Assembly: GCF_988243305.1 (NCBI RefSeq)
Contig: NZ_OZ547136.1
Length of the DNA: 64,000 bases
Reading direction: 5' to 3' (one strand)
Shown here: positions 2,042 to 13,109 of the stretch, piece after piece
Numbering within the stretch: position 1 is the stretch's first letter
How the letters are laid out: every line of letters starts with the position of its first letter
Position numbers and translations under genes: made by a program
Notes under the pieces: model-generated
Told to the model about the DNA's origin: nothing
What the model saw: only the letters and a program-made list of their open reading frames with translations
The model's database searches: none

Positions 2042-3514
2042 TTAGAATATGGACTGGAATTTAGCCATCTCAACCTGGATGGACTTCACCTGGGTGTAAC
2101 TCTGGAGCGTCATCACGCCGTTCTCGCGACCAATACCGGAGTGTTTGTAGCCGCCAACGGGCATCTCAGCAGGGGATTCGCCCCAGGTGTTGATCCAGCA
2201 AATACCCGCTTCCAGCTGATGAATGACGCGATGCGCGCGGTTCAGGTCCGCCGTCACGATGCCCGCCGCCAGGCCGTAGTCGGTATCATTGGCGCGGCGA
2301 ATCACTTCGTCCTCAGATTCATAAGTGAGAAGCGACATCACCGGACCGAAGATCTCTTCGCGCACGATGGTCATTTCGTCGCGGCAATCGGTGAACACAG
2401 TCGGCGCGACCCATGCGCCGTTATCGAGGCCATCGCCTTTCAGTACATCGCCGCCGCACAGTACGCGCGCGCCTTCCTCTTTGCCTTTGGCGATATAGCG
2501 CAGCACGTTATCGCGATGCGGGAAGCTGACCAGCGGGCCGAAGTTAGTTTGCGGATCGAAAACGTCGCCCGCGCGAATGCGCTCAACGCGCGCCAGAATT
2601 TTCTGCTCAAATGCGGCTTTGCATTTCGCCGGAACGAAGACGCGGGTGCCATTGGTACACACCTGACCGGAGCTGAAGAAGTTTGCCATCATGGCGATAT
2701 CGGCGGCGAGATCGAGATCCGCATCATCGAAAACGATCAGCGGTGATTTACCGCCCAGTTCCATGGTCACTTCTTTCAGGGAAGAGGCCGCCGAGTTAGC
2801 CATCACTTTTTTGCCGCTGGCGACACCGCCGGTAAATGACACTTTGGCAATGCCCGGATGCTCGGTCAGATATTGCCCGGTCTCCGCGCCCACGCCCGGC
2901 AACACGTTAAATACACCGTCCGGCAGGCCCGCTTCGCTGTAAATTTCAGCCAGCTTTAACGCGGTAAGCGGGGTGACTTCACTCGGTTTGAAAATCATTG
3001 CATTGCCTGCCGCCAGCGCCGGGGCGGATTTCCACAGGGCAATCTGGATCGGGTAGTTCCATGCGCCAACCCCTGCCACTACGCCCAGCGGTTCGCGGCG
3101 GGTATAGACAAATGACGTCTCACGCAATGGGATCTGGCTGCCTTCCAGCGACGGGATCAGCCCGGCGTAGTACTCGAGCACGTCCGCGCCGGTAACGATA
3201 TCGACGGTTGAGGTTTCCGAATACGCTTTTCCGGTGTCGAGGGTTTCCAGTTTTGCGAGTTCGTCATTGCGTTCACGCAGAATATCAACGGCTCGATGCA
3301 GAATACGCGAGCGTTCCATAGCGGTCATCGCCGCCCAGATTTTTTGCCCCTGTTGGGCACTCTTCACGGCGCGATCGACATCCTCACGCCCGGCGGCCTG
3401 CACGGTCGCCAGCACGTTACCGTTGGCCGGGTTAATGGTCTCGAAGGTGCGACCGCTGGTGGCGGAGGTATAACCACCATGTATATAAAGCTGCTGTTCT
3501 GCCATTCGGGACAT
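2042..3514 (-). CDS. betB: betaine aldehyde dehydrogenase
   Basis: ORF 2042..3517; ATG at 3514 gives [14 protein letters not shown]; aldehyde dehydrogenase family; synteny. Confidence 0.95.
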
Positions 3515-4243: not shown

Positions 4244-6277
4244 ATGACAGACCTTTCACACAGCAGGGAAAAGGACAAAATCAATCCGGTGGTGTTTTAC
4301 ACTTCCGCCGGACTGATTTTGTTGTTTTCCCTGACAACGATCCTGTTTCGCGACTTCTCGGCCCTGTGGATTGGCCGCACGCTGGACTGGGTTTCTAAAA
4401 CCTTCGGTTGGTACTATCTGCTGGCGGCAACGCTCTATATTGTCTTTGTGGTCTGCATCGCTTGTTCGCGTTTTGGTTCGGTGAAGCTCGGGCCTGAACA
4501 ATCCAAACCGGAATTCAGCCTGCTGAGCTGGGCGGCGATGCTGTTTGCTGCCGGGATCGGTATCGACCTGATGTTCTTTTCCGTAGCCGAACCGGTAACG
4601 CAGTATATGCAGCCGCCGGAAGGCGCGGGTCAGACGATTGAGGCCGCGCGTCAGGCGATGGTCTGGACGCTGTTTCACTACGGCTTAACCGGCTGGTCGA
4701 TGTATGCGCTGATGGGCATGGCGCTCGGATACTTTAGTTATCGTTATAATTTGCCGCTCACCATCCGCTCGGCGCTGTACCCGATCTTCGGTAAACGGAT
4801 TAACGGGCCGATAGGGCACTCTGTGGATATTGCAGCGGTAATCGGCACCATCTTCGGTATTGCCACTACGCTCGGTATCGGTGTGGTACAGCTTAACTAT
4901 GGCTTGAGCGTACTGTTTGATATTCCCGATTCAATGGCGGCGAAAGCGGCACTGATCGCCTTGTCGGTGATCATCGCCACGATCTCTGTCACCTCCGGTG
5001 TCGATAAGGGCATTCGCGTGTTATCGGAACTCAACGTTGCGCTGGCGCTGGGGTTGATCCTGTTCGTGCTGTTTATGGGCGACACCTCGTTCCTGCTTAA
5101 TGCGCTGGTGCTGAACGTTGGCGACTATGTGAATCGCTTTATGGGCATGACGCTCAACAGTTTTGCCTTCGACCGTCCGGTTGAGTGGATGAATAACTGG
5201 ACGCTCTTCTTCTGGGCATGGTGGGTGGCATGGTCGCCGTTTGTCGGCCTGTTCCTGGCGCGTATCTCGCGTGGGCGTACCATTCGCCAGTTCGTGCTGG
5301 GTACGTTGATTATTCCGTTTACCTTCACGCTGTTATGGCTCTCGGTATTCGGCAATAGCGCGCTGTATGAAATCATCCACGGCGGCGCGGCATTTGCCGA
5401 GGAAGCGATGGTCCATCCGGAGCGCGGCTTCTACAGCCTGCTGGCGCAGTATCCGGCGTTTACCTTTAGCGCCTCCGTCGCCACCATTACTGGCCTGCTG
5501 TTTTATGTGACCTCGGCGGACTCCGGGGCGCTGGTGCTGGGGAATTTCACCTCGCAGCTTAAAGATATCAACAGCGACGCCCCCGGCTGGCTGCGCGTCT
5601 TCTGGTCGGTGGCGATTGGCCTGCTGACGCTCGGCATGCTGATGACCAACGGGATATCCGCGCTGCAAAACACCACGGTAATCATGGGGCTGCCGTTCAG
5701 CTTTGTGATTTTCTTCGTGATGGCGGGGTTGTATAAATCTCTGAAGGTAGAAGATTACCGCCGTGAAAGTGCCAACCGTGATACCGCGCCGCGACCGCTG
5801 GGGCTTCAGGATCGCCTGAGCTGGAAAAAACGTCTCTCGCGCCTGATGAATTATCCGGGCACGCGTTACACTAAACAGATGATGGAGACGGTCTGTTACC
5901 CGGCAATGGAAGAAGTGGCGCAGGAGCTGCGGTTGCGCGGCGCGTACGTGGAGCTAAAAAGCCTGCCGCCGGAAGAGGGACAACAGTTGGGGCATCTGGA
6001 TTTGTTGGTGCATATGGGCGAAGAGCAAAACTTTGTCTATCAGATTTGGCCGCAGCAATATTCGGTGCCGGGCTTTACCTACCGCGCACGTAGCGGTAAA
6101 TCGACCTACTACCGGCTGGAAACCTTCCTGTTAGAAGGCAGCCAGGGCAACGACCTGATGGACTACAGCAAAGAGCAGGTGATCACCGATATTCTCGACC
6201 AGTACGAGCGGCACCTTAACTTTATCCATCTCCATCGTGAAGCGCCGGGCCATAGCGTGATGTTCCCGGACGCGTGA
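4244..6277 (+). CDS. betT: choline transporter, BCCT family
   Basis: 677-aa ORF, multi-TM protein with hydrophilic C-terminal tail; synteny. Confidence 0.95.
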   Translation: MTDLSHSREKDKINPVVFYTSAGLILLFSLTTILFRDFSALWIGRTLDWVSKTFGWYYLLAATLYIVFVVCIACSRFGSVKLGPEQSKPEFSLLSWAAMLFAAGIGIDLMFFSVAEPVTQYMQPPEGAGQTIEAARQAMVWTLFHYGLTGWSMYALMGMALGYFSYRYNLPLTIRSALYPIFGKRINGPIGHSVDIAAVIGTIFGIATTLGIGVVQLNYGLSVLFDIPDSMAAKAALIALSVIIATISVTSGVDKGIRVLSELNVALALGLILFVLFMGDTSFLLNALVLNVGDYVNRFMGMTLNSFAFDRPVEWMNNWTLFFWAWWVAWSPFVGLFLARISRGRTIRQFVLGTLIIPFTFTLLWLSVFGNSALYEIIHGGAAFAEEAMVHPERGFYSLLAQYPAFTFSASVATITGLLFYVTSADSGALVLGNFTSQLKDINSDAPGWLRVFWSVAIGLLTLGMLMTNGISALQNTTVIMGLPFSFVIFFVMAGLYKSLKVEDYRRESANRDTAPRPLGLQDRLSWKKRLSRLMNYPGTRYTKQMMETVCYPAMEEVAQELRLRGAYVELKSLPPEEGQQLGHLDLLVHMGEEQNFVYQIWPQQYSVPGFTYRARSGKSTYYRLETFLLEGSQGNDLMDYSKEQVITDILDQYERHLNFIHLHREAPGHSVMFPDA

Positions 6278-6290
6278 TTGTTATTGCATA

Positions 6291-6327
6291 AAACCGCGCC
6301 ATGTCTGCATATGGCGCGGTTTCTCTT
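6291..6327 (+). terminator. intrinsic terminator downstream of betT
   Basis: Perfect 11-bp stem aaccgcgccat / atggcgcggtt with 8-nt loop, followed by tctctt, 14 nt after the betT stop. Confidence 0.7.
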
Positions 6328-7154
6328 ACCTCTTGATACGTTATATCTGTGTACAGTTAAGCCCTTAGTATCGATTGATGATTGCCAGGCAACAGATAAT
6401 AAAAAAGAAAAGAACTATTGAAGCCCAAAACCTACGCTTGGACTGTTGTGAATGTTCAATAAGCTTAGTCTTATTTAATGTAAATATTGGTGCTAATTTG
6501 AAATGACGCTTTATTCATGGGAAACGCGTAGCGCAAATCAACTAAAATCAATGTAACTGTTTGTTGTTTAAGGTTTAATTGTCTGTGTCTGATATTTTAT
6601 TGATTGTTTTAAATATTGTTTTTATTGTCATTGTTATAATGTTGGCTATCTATTGCTGAATGGATTCAGCCTTAAAAAGCAGGTTGTTAAGGGATAGACA
6701 TAGAGTAATGACGTGTATGCATAACCAACATCTTTACTCATTATGTCATTGAATGTTGACGCTATGTGTTTATGAGGTTGAGGTATTTTCAGTTGATCTG
6801 GATTGTTAAATTCATATAATGCGCCTTTACTCATGAATGGGCGTCAATACGTAGTGGGAAATTATAAATATTGAAATAGTCCAACTACTTCTTTATTACC
6901 AAAAATGAGTATCTGAATTTTAATATTGCATTCTTGCGTGATTATCTCCTGAGTTTGACTTGTGATTACCTTTTTAAGGTATTTAGCGTAACTGTTTTTG
7001 AGCGAGCATCAGAGGTAAAGATAATCTTTTTGATAGTGATGTGGGATGTTATGCGTATGGCATCGCTGATGTTTATGGTTACCCCTTATGTGTGCTCAGG
7101 AATCCACAGGTAATCACTCATACTGAACAGCGATAAAAGATAAAAGGTGTGTTC

Positions 7155-8243
7155 ATGAATTCATGTGATTTTCGTGTTTTTCTGCAAGAGTTCGGTACAA
7201 CGGTTCATTTGTCATTGCCTGGTAGCGTATCCGAGAAAGAACGACTGCTACTCAAGCTGCTGATGCAGGGAATGTCTGTAACAGAAATATCACAGTACAG
7301 AAATCGCAGTGCAAAGACCATTTCACATCAAAAGAAACAGCTCTTTGAGAAACTGGGGATTCAGAGCGATATTACTTTCTGGCGGGATATTTTCTTTCAG
7401 TACAATCCGGAGATCATATCCGCCACGGGTAATAATAGTCACAAATATATTAATGATAATCACTATCACCATATCGTCACGCCTGAAGCCATCAGTCTGG
7501 CGTTGGAAAACCATGAATTTAAATCGTGGATCCAACCGGTTTTCTGCGCGCAGACTGGGGTACTGACGGGCTGTGAGGTGCTTGTCCGCTGGGAACATCC
7601 ACAAACGGGAATTATCCCACCGGATCAGTTTATTCCTCTGGCGGAGTCATCTGGTCTTATTGTCATAATGACTCGCCAGTTGATGAAACAGACTGCGGAT
7701 ATTCTGATGCCGGTAAAACATTTGCTGCCGGACAATTTCCATATTGGCATCAACGTCTCGGCGGGTTGTTTTTTGGCTGCGGGATTTGAAAAAGAGTGTC
7801 TGAACTTGGTTAAGAAATTAGGTAACGATAAAATCAAACTGGTTCTCGAGCTAACGGAACGTAACCCTATTCCGGTAACGCCAGAAGCCAGAGCGATATT
7901 TGACAGCCTTCATCAGCACAACATTACCTTTGCGCTGGATGACTTTGGTACGGGTTATGCGACCTATCGTTACTTGCAGGCGTTCCCGGTCGATTTTATT
8001 AAGATCGATAAGTCATTTGTGCAAATGGCGAGCGTGGACGAAATATCCGGTCATATTGTGGACAATATTGTCGAACTGGCGCGTAAGCCTGGTCTGAGTA
8101 TCGTGGCGGAAGGGGTAGAAACCCAGGAGCAGGCGGATTTAATGATCGGCAAAGGCGTTCACTTTTTGCAGGGCTATTTGTACTCTCCGCCAGTACCGGG
8201 TAATAAATTTATCTCTGAATGGGTAATGAAAGCAGGTGGTTGA
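7155..8243 (+). CDS. pdeL: c-di-GMP phosphodiesterase with LuxR-type HTH and EAL domain
   Basis: ORF 7149..8243; ATG at 7155 gives MNSCDFRVF; EAL-domain motifs; K-12 yahA position. Confidence 0.93.
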   Translation: MNSCDFRVFLQEFGTTVHLSLPGSVSEKERLLLKLLMQGMSVTEISQYRNRSAKTISHQKKQLFEKLGIQSDITFWRDIFFQYNPEIISATGNNSHKYINDNHYHHIVTPEAISLALENHEFKSWIQPVFCAQTGVLTGCEVLVRWEHPQTGIIPPDQFIPLAESSGLIVIMTRQLMKQTADILMPVKHLLPDNFHIGINVSAGCFLAAGFEKECLNLVKKLGNDKIKLVLELTERNPIPVTPEARAIFDSLHQHNITFALDDFGTGYATYRYLQAFPVDFIKIDKSFVQMASVDEISGHIVDNIVELARKPGLSIVAEGVETQEQADLMIGKGVHFLQGYLYSPPVPGNKFISEWVMKAGG

Positions 8244-11572: not shown

Positions 11573-13109
11573 AATAGTCATTAAACCGAATACCTATTTT
11601 GATTCTGTCTCGCTGATGTCTATCTCCACGCGTGCAAATAAACTCGACGGCGTCGAGCAGGCATTTGTGGCGATGGCGACCGAAATGAACAAAGGCGTGC
11701 TGAAGAATTTAGGGCTGCTGACGCCGGAACTGGAGCAGGCGAAAAACGGCGACCTGATGATTGTCATCAACGGCAAAGCGGGCGCAGACAACGAGCAGTT
11801 GCTGGTGGAGATTGAAGAACTGTTCAACACCAAAGCTCAAACTGGTTCACATGAAGCACGCTATGCCACTATTGCCAGCGCCAAAAAGCATATCCCGGAA
11901 AGTAACCTGGCGGTGATTTCGGTCAACGGTCTGTTTGCCGCTCGCGAAGCGCGTCAGGCGCTGCAAAACGATCTTAACGTGATGCTGTTTTCCGATAACG
12001 TCTCAGTTGAAGATGAACTGGCGCTCAAACAGTTGGCCCACGAAAAAGGGCTGCTGATGATGGGGCCAGACTGCGGTACGGCGATTATCAACGGCGCGGC
12101 GCTCTGCTTTGGTAACGCCGTGCGTCGTGGCAACATCGGTATTGTTGGCGCATCCGGCACCGGTAGCCAGGAACTGAGCGTCCGCATTCATGAATTTGGC
12201 GGCGGCGTTTCGCAACTGATTGGCACCGGCGGGCGCGACCTGAGCGAGAAAATCGGCGGCCTGATGATGCTCGACGCTATCGGGATGCTGGAAAACGATC
12301 CGCAAACTGAAATCATTGTGCTTATCTCCAAACCGCCAGCGCCTGCGGTGGCCCGCAAAGTGCTGGAACGCGCACGCGCCTGCCGTAAGCCAGTGGTGGT
12401 CTGCTTCCTCGGTCGTGGCGAAACGCCAGTGGATGAGCAGGGGCTACAGTTTGCTCGCGGCACCAAAGAGGCGGCACTAAAAGCGGTGATGCTCTCCGGT
12501 GTGAAACAAGAACATCTCGACTTGCATACCCTGAACCAGCCGTTGATTGCGGATGTGCGTGCGCGTCTGCAACCGCAGCAGAAATACATTCGTGGCCTGT
12601 TCTGCGGCGGCACGCTGTGTGACGAAACCATGTTCGCGGTGATGGAAAAACATGGCGATGTCTACAGCAACATTCAGCCCGATCCTGAATTCCGCCTGCA
12701 AGATATCAACCGCAGCATCAAACACACCTTCCTCGACTTTGGCGATGACGACTTCACCAACGGCAAGCCGCATCCAATGATTGACCCCACCAACCGTATC
12801 AGCCGCTTGATCGAAGAGGCGCGCGATCCAGAAGTGGCGGTGATCGTGATGGATTTTGTGCTCGGGTTTGGATCGCATGAAGATCCGGTCGGTTCCACCA
12901 TCGAGGCGATCAAAGAGGCGAAAGCGATCGCCGCTGCCGAAGGACGTGAGTTGATCATTCTCGCCTATGTGCTGGGTACCGATCTTGATACGCCATCGTT
13001 AGAACAACAAAGCCAGATGTTGCTTGATGCCGGAGTGATTCTGGCCAGCAGCAGCACCAATACCGGATTGCTGGCGCGTGAATTTATCTGCAAAGGGGAG
13101 GAAGCCTGA
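11562..13109 (+). CDS. yahF: FdrA-like CoA-ligase-fold protein
   Basis: 515-aa ORF; ATG at 11562 preceded by ggaggg; overlaps yahE stop by 11 nt. Confidence 0.88.
   Translation: MSVKIVIKPNTYFDSVSLMSISTRANKLDGVEQAFVAMATEMNKGVLKNLGLLTPELEQAKNGDLMIVINGKAGADNEQLLVEIEELFNTKAQTGSHEARYATIASAKKHIPESNLAVISVNGLFAAREARQALQNDLNVMLFSDNVSVEDELALKQLAHEKGLLMMGPDCGTAIINGAALCFGNAVRRGNIGIVGASGTGSQELSVRIHEFGGGVSQLIGTGGRDLSEKIGGLMMLDAIGMLENDPQTEIIVLISKPPAPAVARKVLERARACRKPVVVCFLGRGETPVDEQGLQFARGTKEAALKAVMLSGVKQEHLDLHTLNQPLIADVRARLQPQQKYIRGLFCGGTLCDETMFAVMEKHGDVYSNIQPDPEFRLQDINRSIKHTFLDFGDDDFTNGKPHPMIDPTNRISRLIEEARDPEVAVIVMDFVLGFGSHEDPVGSTIEAIKEAKAIAAAEGRELIILAYVLGTDLDTPSLEQQSQMLLDAGVILASSSTNTGLLAREFICKGEEA

Follow-up and report, generated by a model that had tools for sequence, protein, structure and literature searches.

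The betT–pdeL spacer as the probable control region of pdeL, with the small open reading frame yahV embedded in it

The betT–pdeL spacer and the elements placed on it

The window (the whole 64,000-nucleotide stretch of DNA that was analysed) carried betT on the plus strand (4244-6277), preceded by betIBA and followed by pdeL as the next gene downstream. The start of pdeL was taken from RefSeq genomes 99.9% identical to this stretch, which placed its ATG at 7155 and left a betT–pdeL spacer of exactly 877 bp (6278-7154). This spacer was the lowest-GC 877-nt stretch of the window (GC 0.347, compared to 0.523 for the whole), a GC this low being reached by just 0.16% of the 877-nt windows in the 64 kb. 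It also held the longest internal gap without an open reading frame (ORF) of at least 120 aa (871 bp; the median gap was 110 bp), bearing out an earlier reading made from the letters alone (the sequence-only reading), which had called the spacer unusually long and AT-rich. The many A/T tracts noted in the same reading were present, as 17 runs of at least four A or T, but same-composition shuffles gave 13.9 ± 3.0 such runs, so that the tracts follow from AT-richness alone and carry no extra signal. A second low-GC place, at about 62470-63500, contained the sole other 877-nt stretch with a GC of 0.36 or below (minimum 0.349) and adjoined an ORF-poor gap reaching the window end. Spacers retrieved from RefSeq E. 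coli genomes were 94-99.9% identical to that of the window, and most of its length was matched in 3,662 of 5,426 complete E. coli genomes; the K-12 spacer aligned with it collinearly over the full length, with 93.9% identity and three small indels.

The pdeL gene encodes a LuxR-type transcription factor with c-di-GMP phosphodiesterase activity. In K-12, H-NS silences the pdeL promoter, and activation requires Cra as well as PdeL itself (Reinders et al., bioRxiv 10.1101/2021.10.01.462762). PdeL binds two boxes there, one distal and Cra-independent (CIB), the other proximal, Cra-dependent (CDB) and directly adjacent to the Cra box (10.1101/2021.10.01.462762). [quoted passage not shown] The text of that work gives no coordinates, and the positions in Table 1 were obtained by mapping the oligonucleotides (primer sequences) of its supplement onto the window. 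Independent scans, which returned a single Cra palindrome, a single CIB palindrome and a best σ70-like site, agreed with this primer-based placement.

Table 1. Features of the betT–pdeL spacer, in window coordinates
Feature	Position	Strand	Description
betT intrinsic-terminator-type hairpin	6291-6322	+	14-bp stem, then UUUCUCUU
CIB, distal Cra-independent PdeL box	6455-6478		Imperfect palindrome TTCAATAAG-N6-CTTATTTAA
yahV ortholog	6585-6659	+	24 codons plus stop, GTG start: MSDILLIVLNIVFIVIVIMLAIYC; position, frame, length and stop as in K-12
62-codon ORF, judged spurious	6646-6834	-	Sole ORF of more than 60 codons in the spacer
Cra box	6655-6670		GCTGAATGGATTCAGC; placed by primer 4695 and CB-minus mutagenic primer 5030
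CDB, Cra-dependent PdeL box	6671-6683		13 nt scrambled by K-12 CDB-minus primer 5028
pdeL σ70 promoter 'P1'	6793-6820	+	-35 TTGATC 6793-6798, 16-nt spacer, -10 TATAAT 6815-6820
Inferred pdeL 5' UTR	6827-7154	+	About 328 nt; Shine-Dalgarno AAGGTG 7142-7147

The hairpin following betT comprised a perfect 12-nt inverted repeat and, despite its strong predicted RNA fold (-22.5 kcal/mol, z -5.7), failed the T-run rule of the terminator scan. The CIB was placed with EMSA primers 4991 and 4997, which mapped to 6445-6511, a fragment described in its legend as the CIB with 10 bp upstream and 33 bp downstream; the box has been published as an H-NS site too (10.1101/2021.10.01.462762). Its palindrome, AATAAG-N6-CTTAT, occurred at one locus in the 64-kb window (6458-6474, reported on both strands since it is palindromic), with one base of the 6-nt centre differing from K-12. 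The CIB was kept in both of the cryptic-clade Escherichia genomes, E1V33 and SCPM-O-B-8794 (the latter a divergent 'E. coli'). Primers 4695 and 5030 define GCTGAATGGATTCAG as the Cra site, and this sequence was matched exactly at 6655-6669, the single site in the window. A Cra site upstream of pdeL was reportedly first noted by Shimada et al. The position of the adjoining CDB was kept, and its sequence was CTTAAAAAGCAGG in the window against CTTAATGAGTGGG in K-12. With 4 of 13 positions differing, PdeL autoregulation may behave differently from K-12 in this B2-like lineage, although the HTH region of PdeL is the same.

The best σ70-like site in the spacer scan was TTGATC-N16-TATAAT, with 10 of 12 matches to consensus. 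Primer 5032, used for the published 'P1' construct, changed the AT-rich flanks of this promoter and kept both hexamers (10.1101/2021.10.01.462762), and the RNA polymerase EMSA fragment of the same work ended at window position 6832. Together, primer design and consensus suggest a pdeL start site at about 6826-6828, which would put the centre of the Cra box some 165 bp upstream, unusually far for a simple activator. The motif CTTTAYTCAT was found three times in the spacer: at 6509-6518, at 6732-6741 within a block conserved in the cryptic clades, and at 6825-6834, directly after the -10 hexamer and around the predicted start.

We consider it highly probable that the spacer comprises all of the cis-regulatory DNA of pdeL, with the lineage-restricted small ORF yahV embedded in it. 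From betT onwards, the order of elements would be the terminator hairpin, H-NS-bound AT-rich DNA, the CIB, yahV, and the Cra box with the CDB, followed about 150 bp further down by the σ70 promoter, the leader of about 328 nt and pdeL. The promoter would be silenced by H-NS until Cra, on its box, enabled PdeL binding at the CDB. At low c-di-GMP, PdeL tetramers on the CDB and CIB would probably loop the intervening stretch of about 190 bp, which includes all of yahV, and this loop would displace H-NS and bring in RNA polymerase, resulting in switch-like positive feedback. The mechanism was shown in K-12 by others; for the allele of the window we infer it from the conservation of the sites. The suggestion of the sequence-only reading that this is an H-NS-silenced promoter region matches the published K-12 experiments on the orthologous region. 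A scan for the high-affinity H-NS motif TCGATAAATT at up to two mismatches hit the spacer twice, with two mismatches each, and showed no enrichment; it was uninformative, and H-NS binding is accordingly taken from the K-12 literature. One of these two near-matches, TTGTTAAATT at 6803-6812, lay in the spacer of the promoter, among the bases swapped in the published 'P1' construct. An H-NS-silenced, Cra/PdeL-activated bistable switch and a catalogued small protein explain the AT-rich gap, and to this extent the region is already known from published work and not new. The switch sets c-di-GMP levels, lifestyle and sensitivity to phage N4.

The pdeL leader, small RNAs and minor open reading frames

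A long imperfect hairpin was predicted at about 6994-7103 (-35.8 kcal/mol, z -3.0) within the inferred pdeL leader, the fold of the whole 5' UTR giving z -1.4. The leader segment 6880-7143 was present as a single copy; nearly all of 3,776 matching records were at least 95% identical to it, and genomes that carry ehaA at this locus did not have it (see below). Being single-copy, it was ruled out as a repeated or mobile element. The sequence-only reading had seen room in the spacer for a small RNA, and an unannotated regulatory RNA on either strand could be imagined as the real reason for the spacer's length, given 877 bp without a large ORF, this stable and conserved hairpin, and a weak minus-strand promoter-like site at 6631-6603. 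Nevertheless, a scan of 5800-7600 against Rfam 15 on both strands gave no family match at E ≤ 1, a terminator scan of 6100-7300 gave no terminator-like site within the spacer, and the small RNA so supposed found no support. The hairpin itself lies inside the predicted leader and showed almost no covariation: RNAalifold on five sequences counted 3 of 98 pairs as compensatory, with a covariation term of -0.28 kcal/mol, too little to support a conserved RNA structure. Since the published binding sites, yahV and the leader together explain how long the spacer is, we regard a small RNA as its cause as very improbable.

Even less credible is a protein-coding role for the 62-codon minus-strand ORF, which the sequence-only reading had rightly distrusted. 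It was open at near-equal length in the window, K-12 and E. coli C, but its ATG was not preceded by a Shine-Dalgarno sequence and, on the antisense strand, it overlaps both the Cra box and the pdeL promoter. In both cryptic-clade genomes it was broken by several stops and a frameshift, though the DNA blocks it overlaps are conserved there. None of the RefSeq genomes inspected had it annotated, and its sole Pfam match (E 0.13) was far below the cut-off and not above noise. Among the plus-strand ORFs, those of 59, 43 and 30 codons contained stops in both cryptic-clade genomes and were rejected, as was one of 31 codons, interrupted in SCPM-O-B-8794 only. Pfam and NCBIfam scans of all candidate peptides gave no real matches.

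The small-protein gene yahV

The room for an unannotated small protein that the sequence-only reading had pointed out was filled by yahV, intact in the window and unannotated by RefSeq in its lineage. That reading was thus right in its guesses of silencing and of a small protein, but had located neither yahV nor the Cra box nor the promoter. K-12 YahV (b4730), of 24 aa, was detected by chromosomal SPA tagging (VanOrsdel et al. 2018, PMC6001520), and later literature treats it as an uncharacterised single-pass membrane protein and proposes a functional link to bet and pdeL. The K-12 RefSeq record annotates 'protein YahV' inside the spacer, GTG-initiated and almost wholly hydrophobic. The window copy was identical to it at 17 of 24 residues, the seven differences being S2C, I7N, V14G, V16A, M18I, A20V and Y22I, and its stop codon fell inside the Cra box. 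The sequence AAGG was situated at 6570-6573, upstream of the GTG. An in-frame TTG at 6579-6581, two codons upstream of the GTG and 5 nt from the AAGG, was absent in K-12 and could serve as a start giving a product of 26 aa.

RefSeq calls yahV only near the K-12 or E. coli C form of the peptide. The K-12-like allele, found in 1,726 records that were 80-90% identical to the window over 6540-6700, was annotated as YahV, and an intermediate allele as 'hypothetical protein'; the window-like allele, in about 1,714 records at least 95% identical to the window (including UTI89 and 536), was without annotation, so that yahV goes uncalled in about 1,700 complete B2-type genomes. A published claim restricts yahV to phylogroups A, B1 and C. 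Since B2-type genomes have an unannotated intact copy, this distribution is an annotation artefact. The window peptide was not found in a collection of 15 billion proteins in which the K-12 peptide was present, and scans with Pfam and NCBIfam gave no family model for the yahV product.

In an alternative reading, YahV would be a single-pass membrane protein whose function is under selection, such as a modulator of osmotic stress or motility, and the distal part of the spacer would be kept for it. Besides the detection of YahV in K-12 and the proposed link to bet and pdeL, the ORF was open over 24 codons in 9 of 9 readable E. coli loci, and all six distinct alleles that these represent were intact and hydrophobic. 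T occupied the second codon position in 18 of 24 codons (P ~0.02 for one position); this enrichment, the sole hint of selection on hydrophobicity, could reflect selection for a hydrophobic helix, but codons in T-rich DNA yield hydrophobic residues by default. Between the window and K-12, yahV differed by eight nonsynonymous and no synonymous changes, and 10 of 11 changes among all alleles were nonsynonymous, a small sample (by our own estimate, P of 0/8 synonymous is ~0.14) that does not exclude function. Divergence within the spacer was highest where yahV lies; the leader, in contrast, was at least 95% identical almost everywhere. In E1V33, the yahV start was lost and a stop stood at codon 9, in SCPM-O-B-8794 the frame was replaced by an unrelated ORF of 17-21 codons, and the locus form with ehaA, represented by 1,402 genomes, had no yahV-like ORF. 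The substitutions thus gave no sign of purifying selection and the sister lineages no intact copy, a result that bears on the function of yahV and not on its orthology. Together with the missing family model and a published distribution that proved artefactual, this makes a selected membrane protein unlikely as the reason for the distal spacer. The reading we prefer is that yahV is translated in K-12, and predicted to be translated in the window, yet weakly constrained or unconstrained; in our view its product is a hydrophobic peptide of recent origin or under weak selection, and not what the spacer exists for.

The replacement ORF in SCPM-O-B-8794 (locus ~2980-3033, …MLAFSFSCCIFKSIVFC) shared with yahV the TGA that falls within the Cra box, and short hydrophobic frames seem to be gained and lost at this position. 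Insertions of IS1 were observed inside the spacer of other E. coli: in strain EF7-18-51 within yahV (locus 1569-2340), with everything up to yahL deleted, and in strain Ecol_732 about 25 bp downstream of the Cra box (locus ~856-1556).

Two forms of the locus and their relation to known systems

About 1,500 complete E. coli genomes matched the spacer up to 6319 only, just past the betT terminator. In O157:H7, betT was followed by 573 bp, by ehaA (encoding the autotransporter adhesin of O-island 15), by a further 141 bp and by pdeL, compared to the window, where pdeL follows the spacer directly with no ehaA between. The ehaA form accounted for 1,402 genomes, or 26% of the complete E. coli genomes, against 3,726 with the spacer/yahV form. 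The pdeL genes of the two forms were 71-90% identical for the first ~300 nt (~100 codons) and 95-100% identical thereafter, which suggests an old recombination boundary inside pdeL. The diverged start covered 7155-7455 in the window and 11777-12080 in the ehaA-type locus, and the N-terminus of ehaA-type PdeL (MASHD...) matched those of E. whittamii and E. albertii.

Alignment of the O157 betT–ehaA spacer with the window gave two collinear patches at the same offset (E 4e-6 and 5e-4 against a 582-nt target), corresponding to the Cra box and the promoter. In E. whittamii and E. albertii, too, ehaA stood directly upstream of pdeL with the same Cra box and promoter before it. When seven sequences from E. 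coli, the cryptic clades, E. whittamii and E. albertii were aligned, two blocks alone stayed essentially invariant: the promoter, which was the most conserved block across both locus types, and the Cra box, which differed by one substitution, in E. albertii. The distance from the Cra box to the -35 hexamer was 135-138 nt in 8 of 8 sequences examined. As this core also stands before ehaA, in the other form of the locus, it appears to be older than the spacer arrangement. The palindrome AATAAG-N6-CTTAT was found 38 nt downstream of the start of the Cra box in the ehaA type and about 197 nt upstream of it in the spacer type. Upstream, E. whittamii and the two cryptic-clade genomes were without the bet operon and had ykgG (lutC-like) as neighbour, in the cryptic-clade loci upstream of about position 2680; E. 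whittamii nonetheless keeps a 40-nt copy (locus 1786-1825), 92.5% identical, of the sequence that follows the betT stop, including the terminator hairpin.

Homology between the two forms ended near 6879, and 6880-7143 had no counterpart in the ehaA type. No ehaA-related sequence was found in the window spacer by sensitive blastn (word size 7). On these two grounds, the relation between the forms is best described as a replacement, in either direction, rather than as a demonstrable clean deletion.

Two deeply diverged forms of the locus therefore share only the Cra box and promoter, and we postulate that in the sister species, and in roughly one in four E. coli, ehaA is controlled by the Cra/PdeL switch described for K-12 pdeL. 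Should PdeL and Cra indeed act on ehaA in EHEC-type strains, an adhesin would be under the direct control of a switch that responds to metabolism and c-di-GMP, and results on pdeL regulation in K-12 would not be transferable to a quarter of E. coli. A literature search of incomplete coverage returned no paper that mentions ehaA along with at least two of Cra, H-NS and c-di-GMP, and a shared Cra box and promoter upstream of ehaA appears to be absent from the literature searched. More tentatively, and with somewhat less than even confidence, the 'pdeL promoter' of K-12 may be an orphaned ehaA promoter, PdeL having first served as the c-di-GMP-sensing regulator of ehaA. A PdeL-box-like palindrome beside the ehaA-type Cra box, AATAAGACGATTCTTAT, would then be a putative PdeL site. 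Loss or replacement of ehaA would have turned the circuit into pure autoregulation in the spacer of K-12 and B2-type strains, and yahV would have arisen de novo in the leftover T-rich regulatory DNA.

The closest known system is the pdeL region of K-12 itself, which has the same flanks and nearly the same length as the window (874 and 877 bp, respectively), an identical 15-nt Cra core, matching CIB palindrome, promoter hexamers and spacings, and a leader about 99% identical. It differs by about 6% divergence, concentrated in 6480-6720, by a CDB changed at 4 of 13 positions and by another yahV allele. The two yahV copies agree in locus, strand, frame, GTG start, 24 codons, a stop inside the Cra box and hydrophobic character, but differ at 7 of 24 residues, and the window allele is without RefSeq annotation. 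The region upstream of ehaA in O-island 15 of O157:H7 resembles the window in following the same betT terminator, in being AT-rich (GC 0.32), and in its Cra box, its TTGATY-N16-TATAAT promoter and the 135-138 nt between them. In contrast to the window, its promoter precedes the 3,984-bp ehaA, with pdeL following after a 141-bp gap, it has no yahV, and identity is about 67% outside the two conserved blocks. More broadly, pdeL resembles other H-NS-silenced, counter-silenced enterobacterial promoters, such as those of bgl, proU and virulence islands, in its low GC, its length and a dedicated anti-silencer. Unlike such promoters in general, the anti-silencer of pdeL is its own product, switched by c-di-GMP, with Cra as an obligatory partner.
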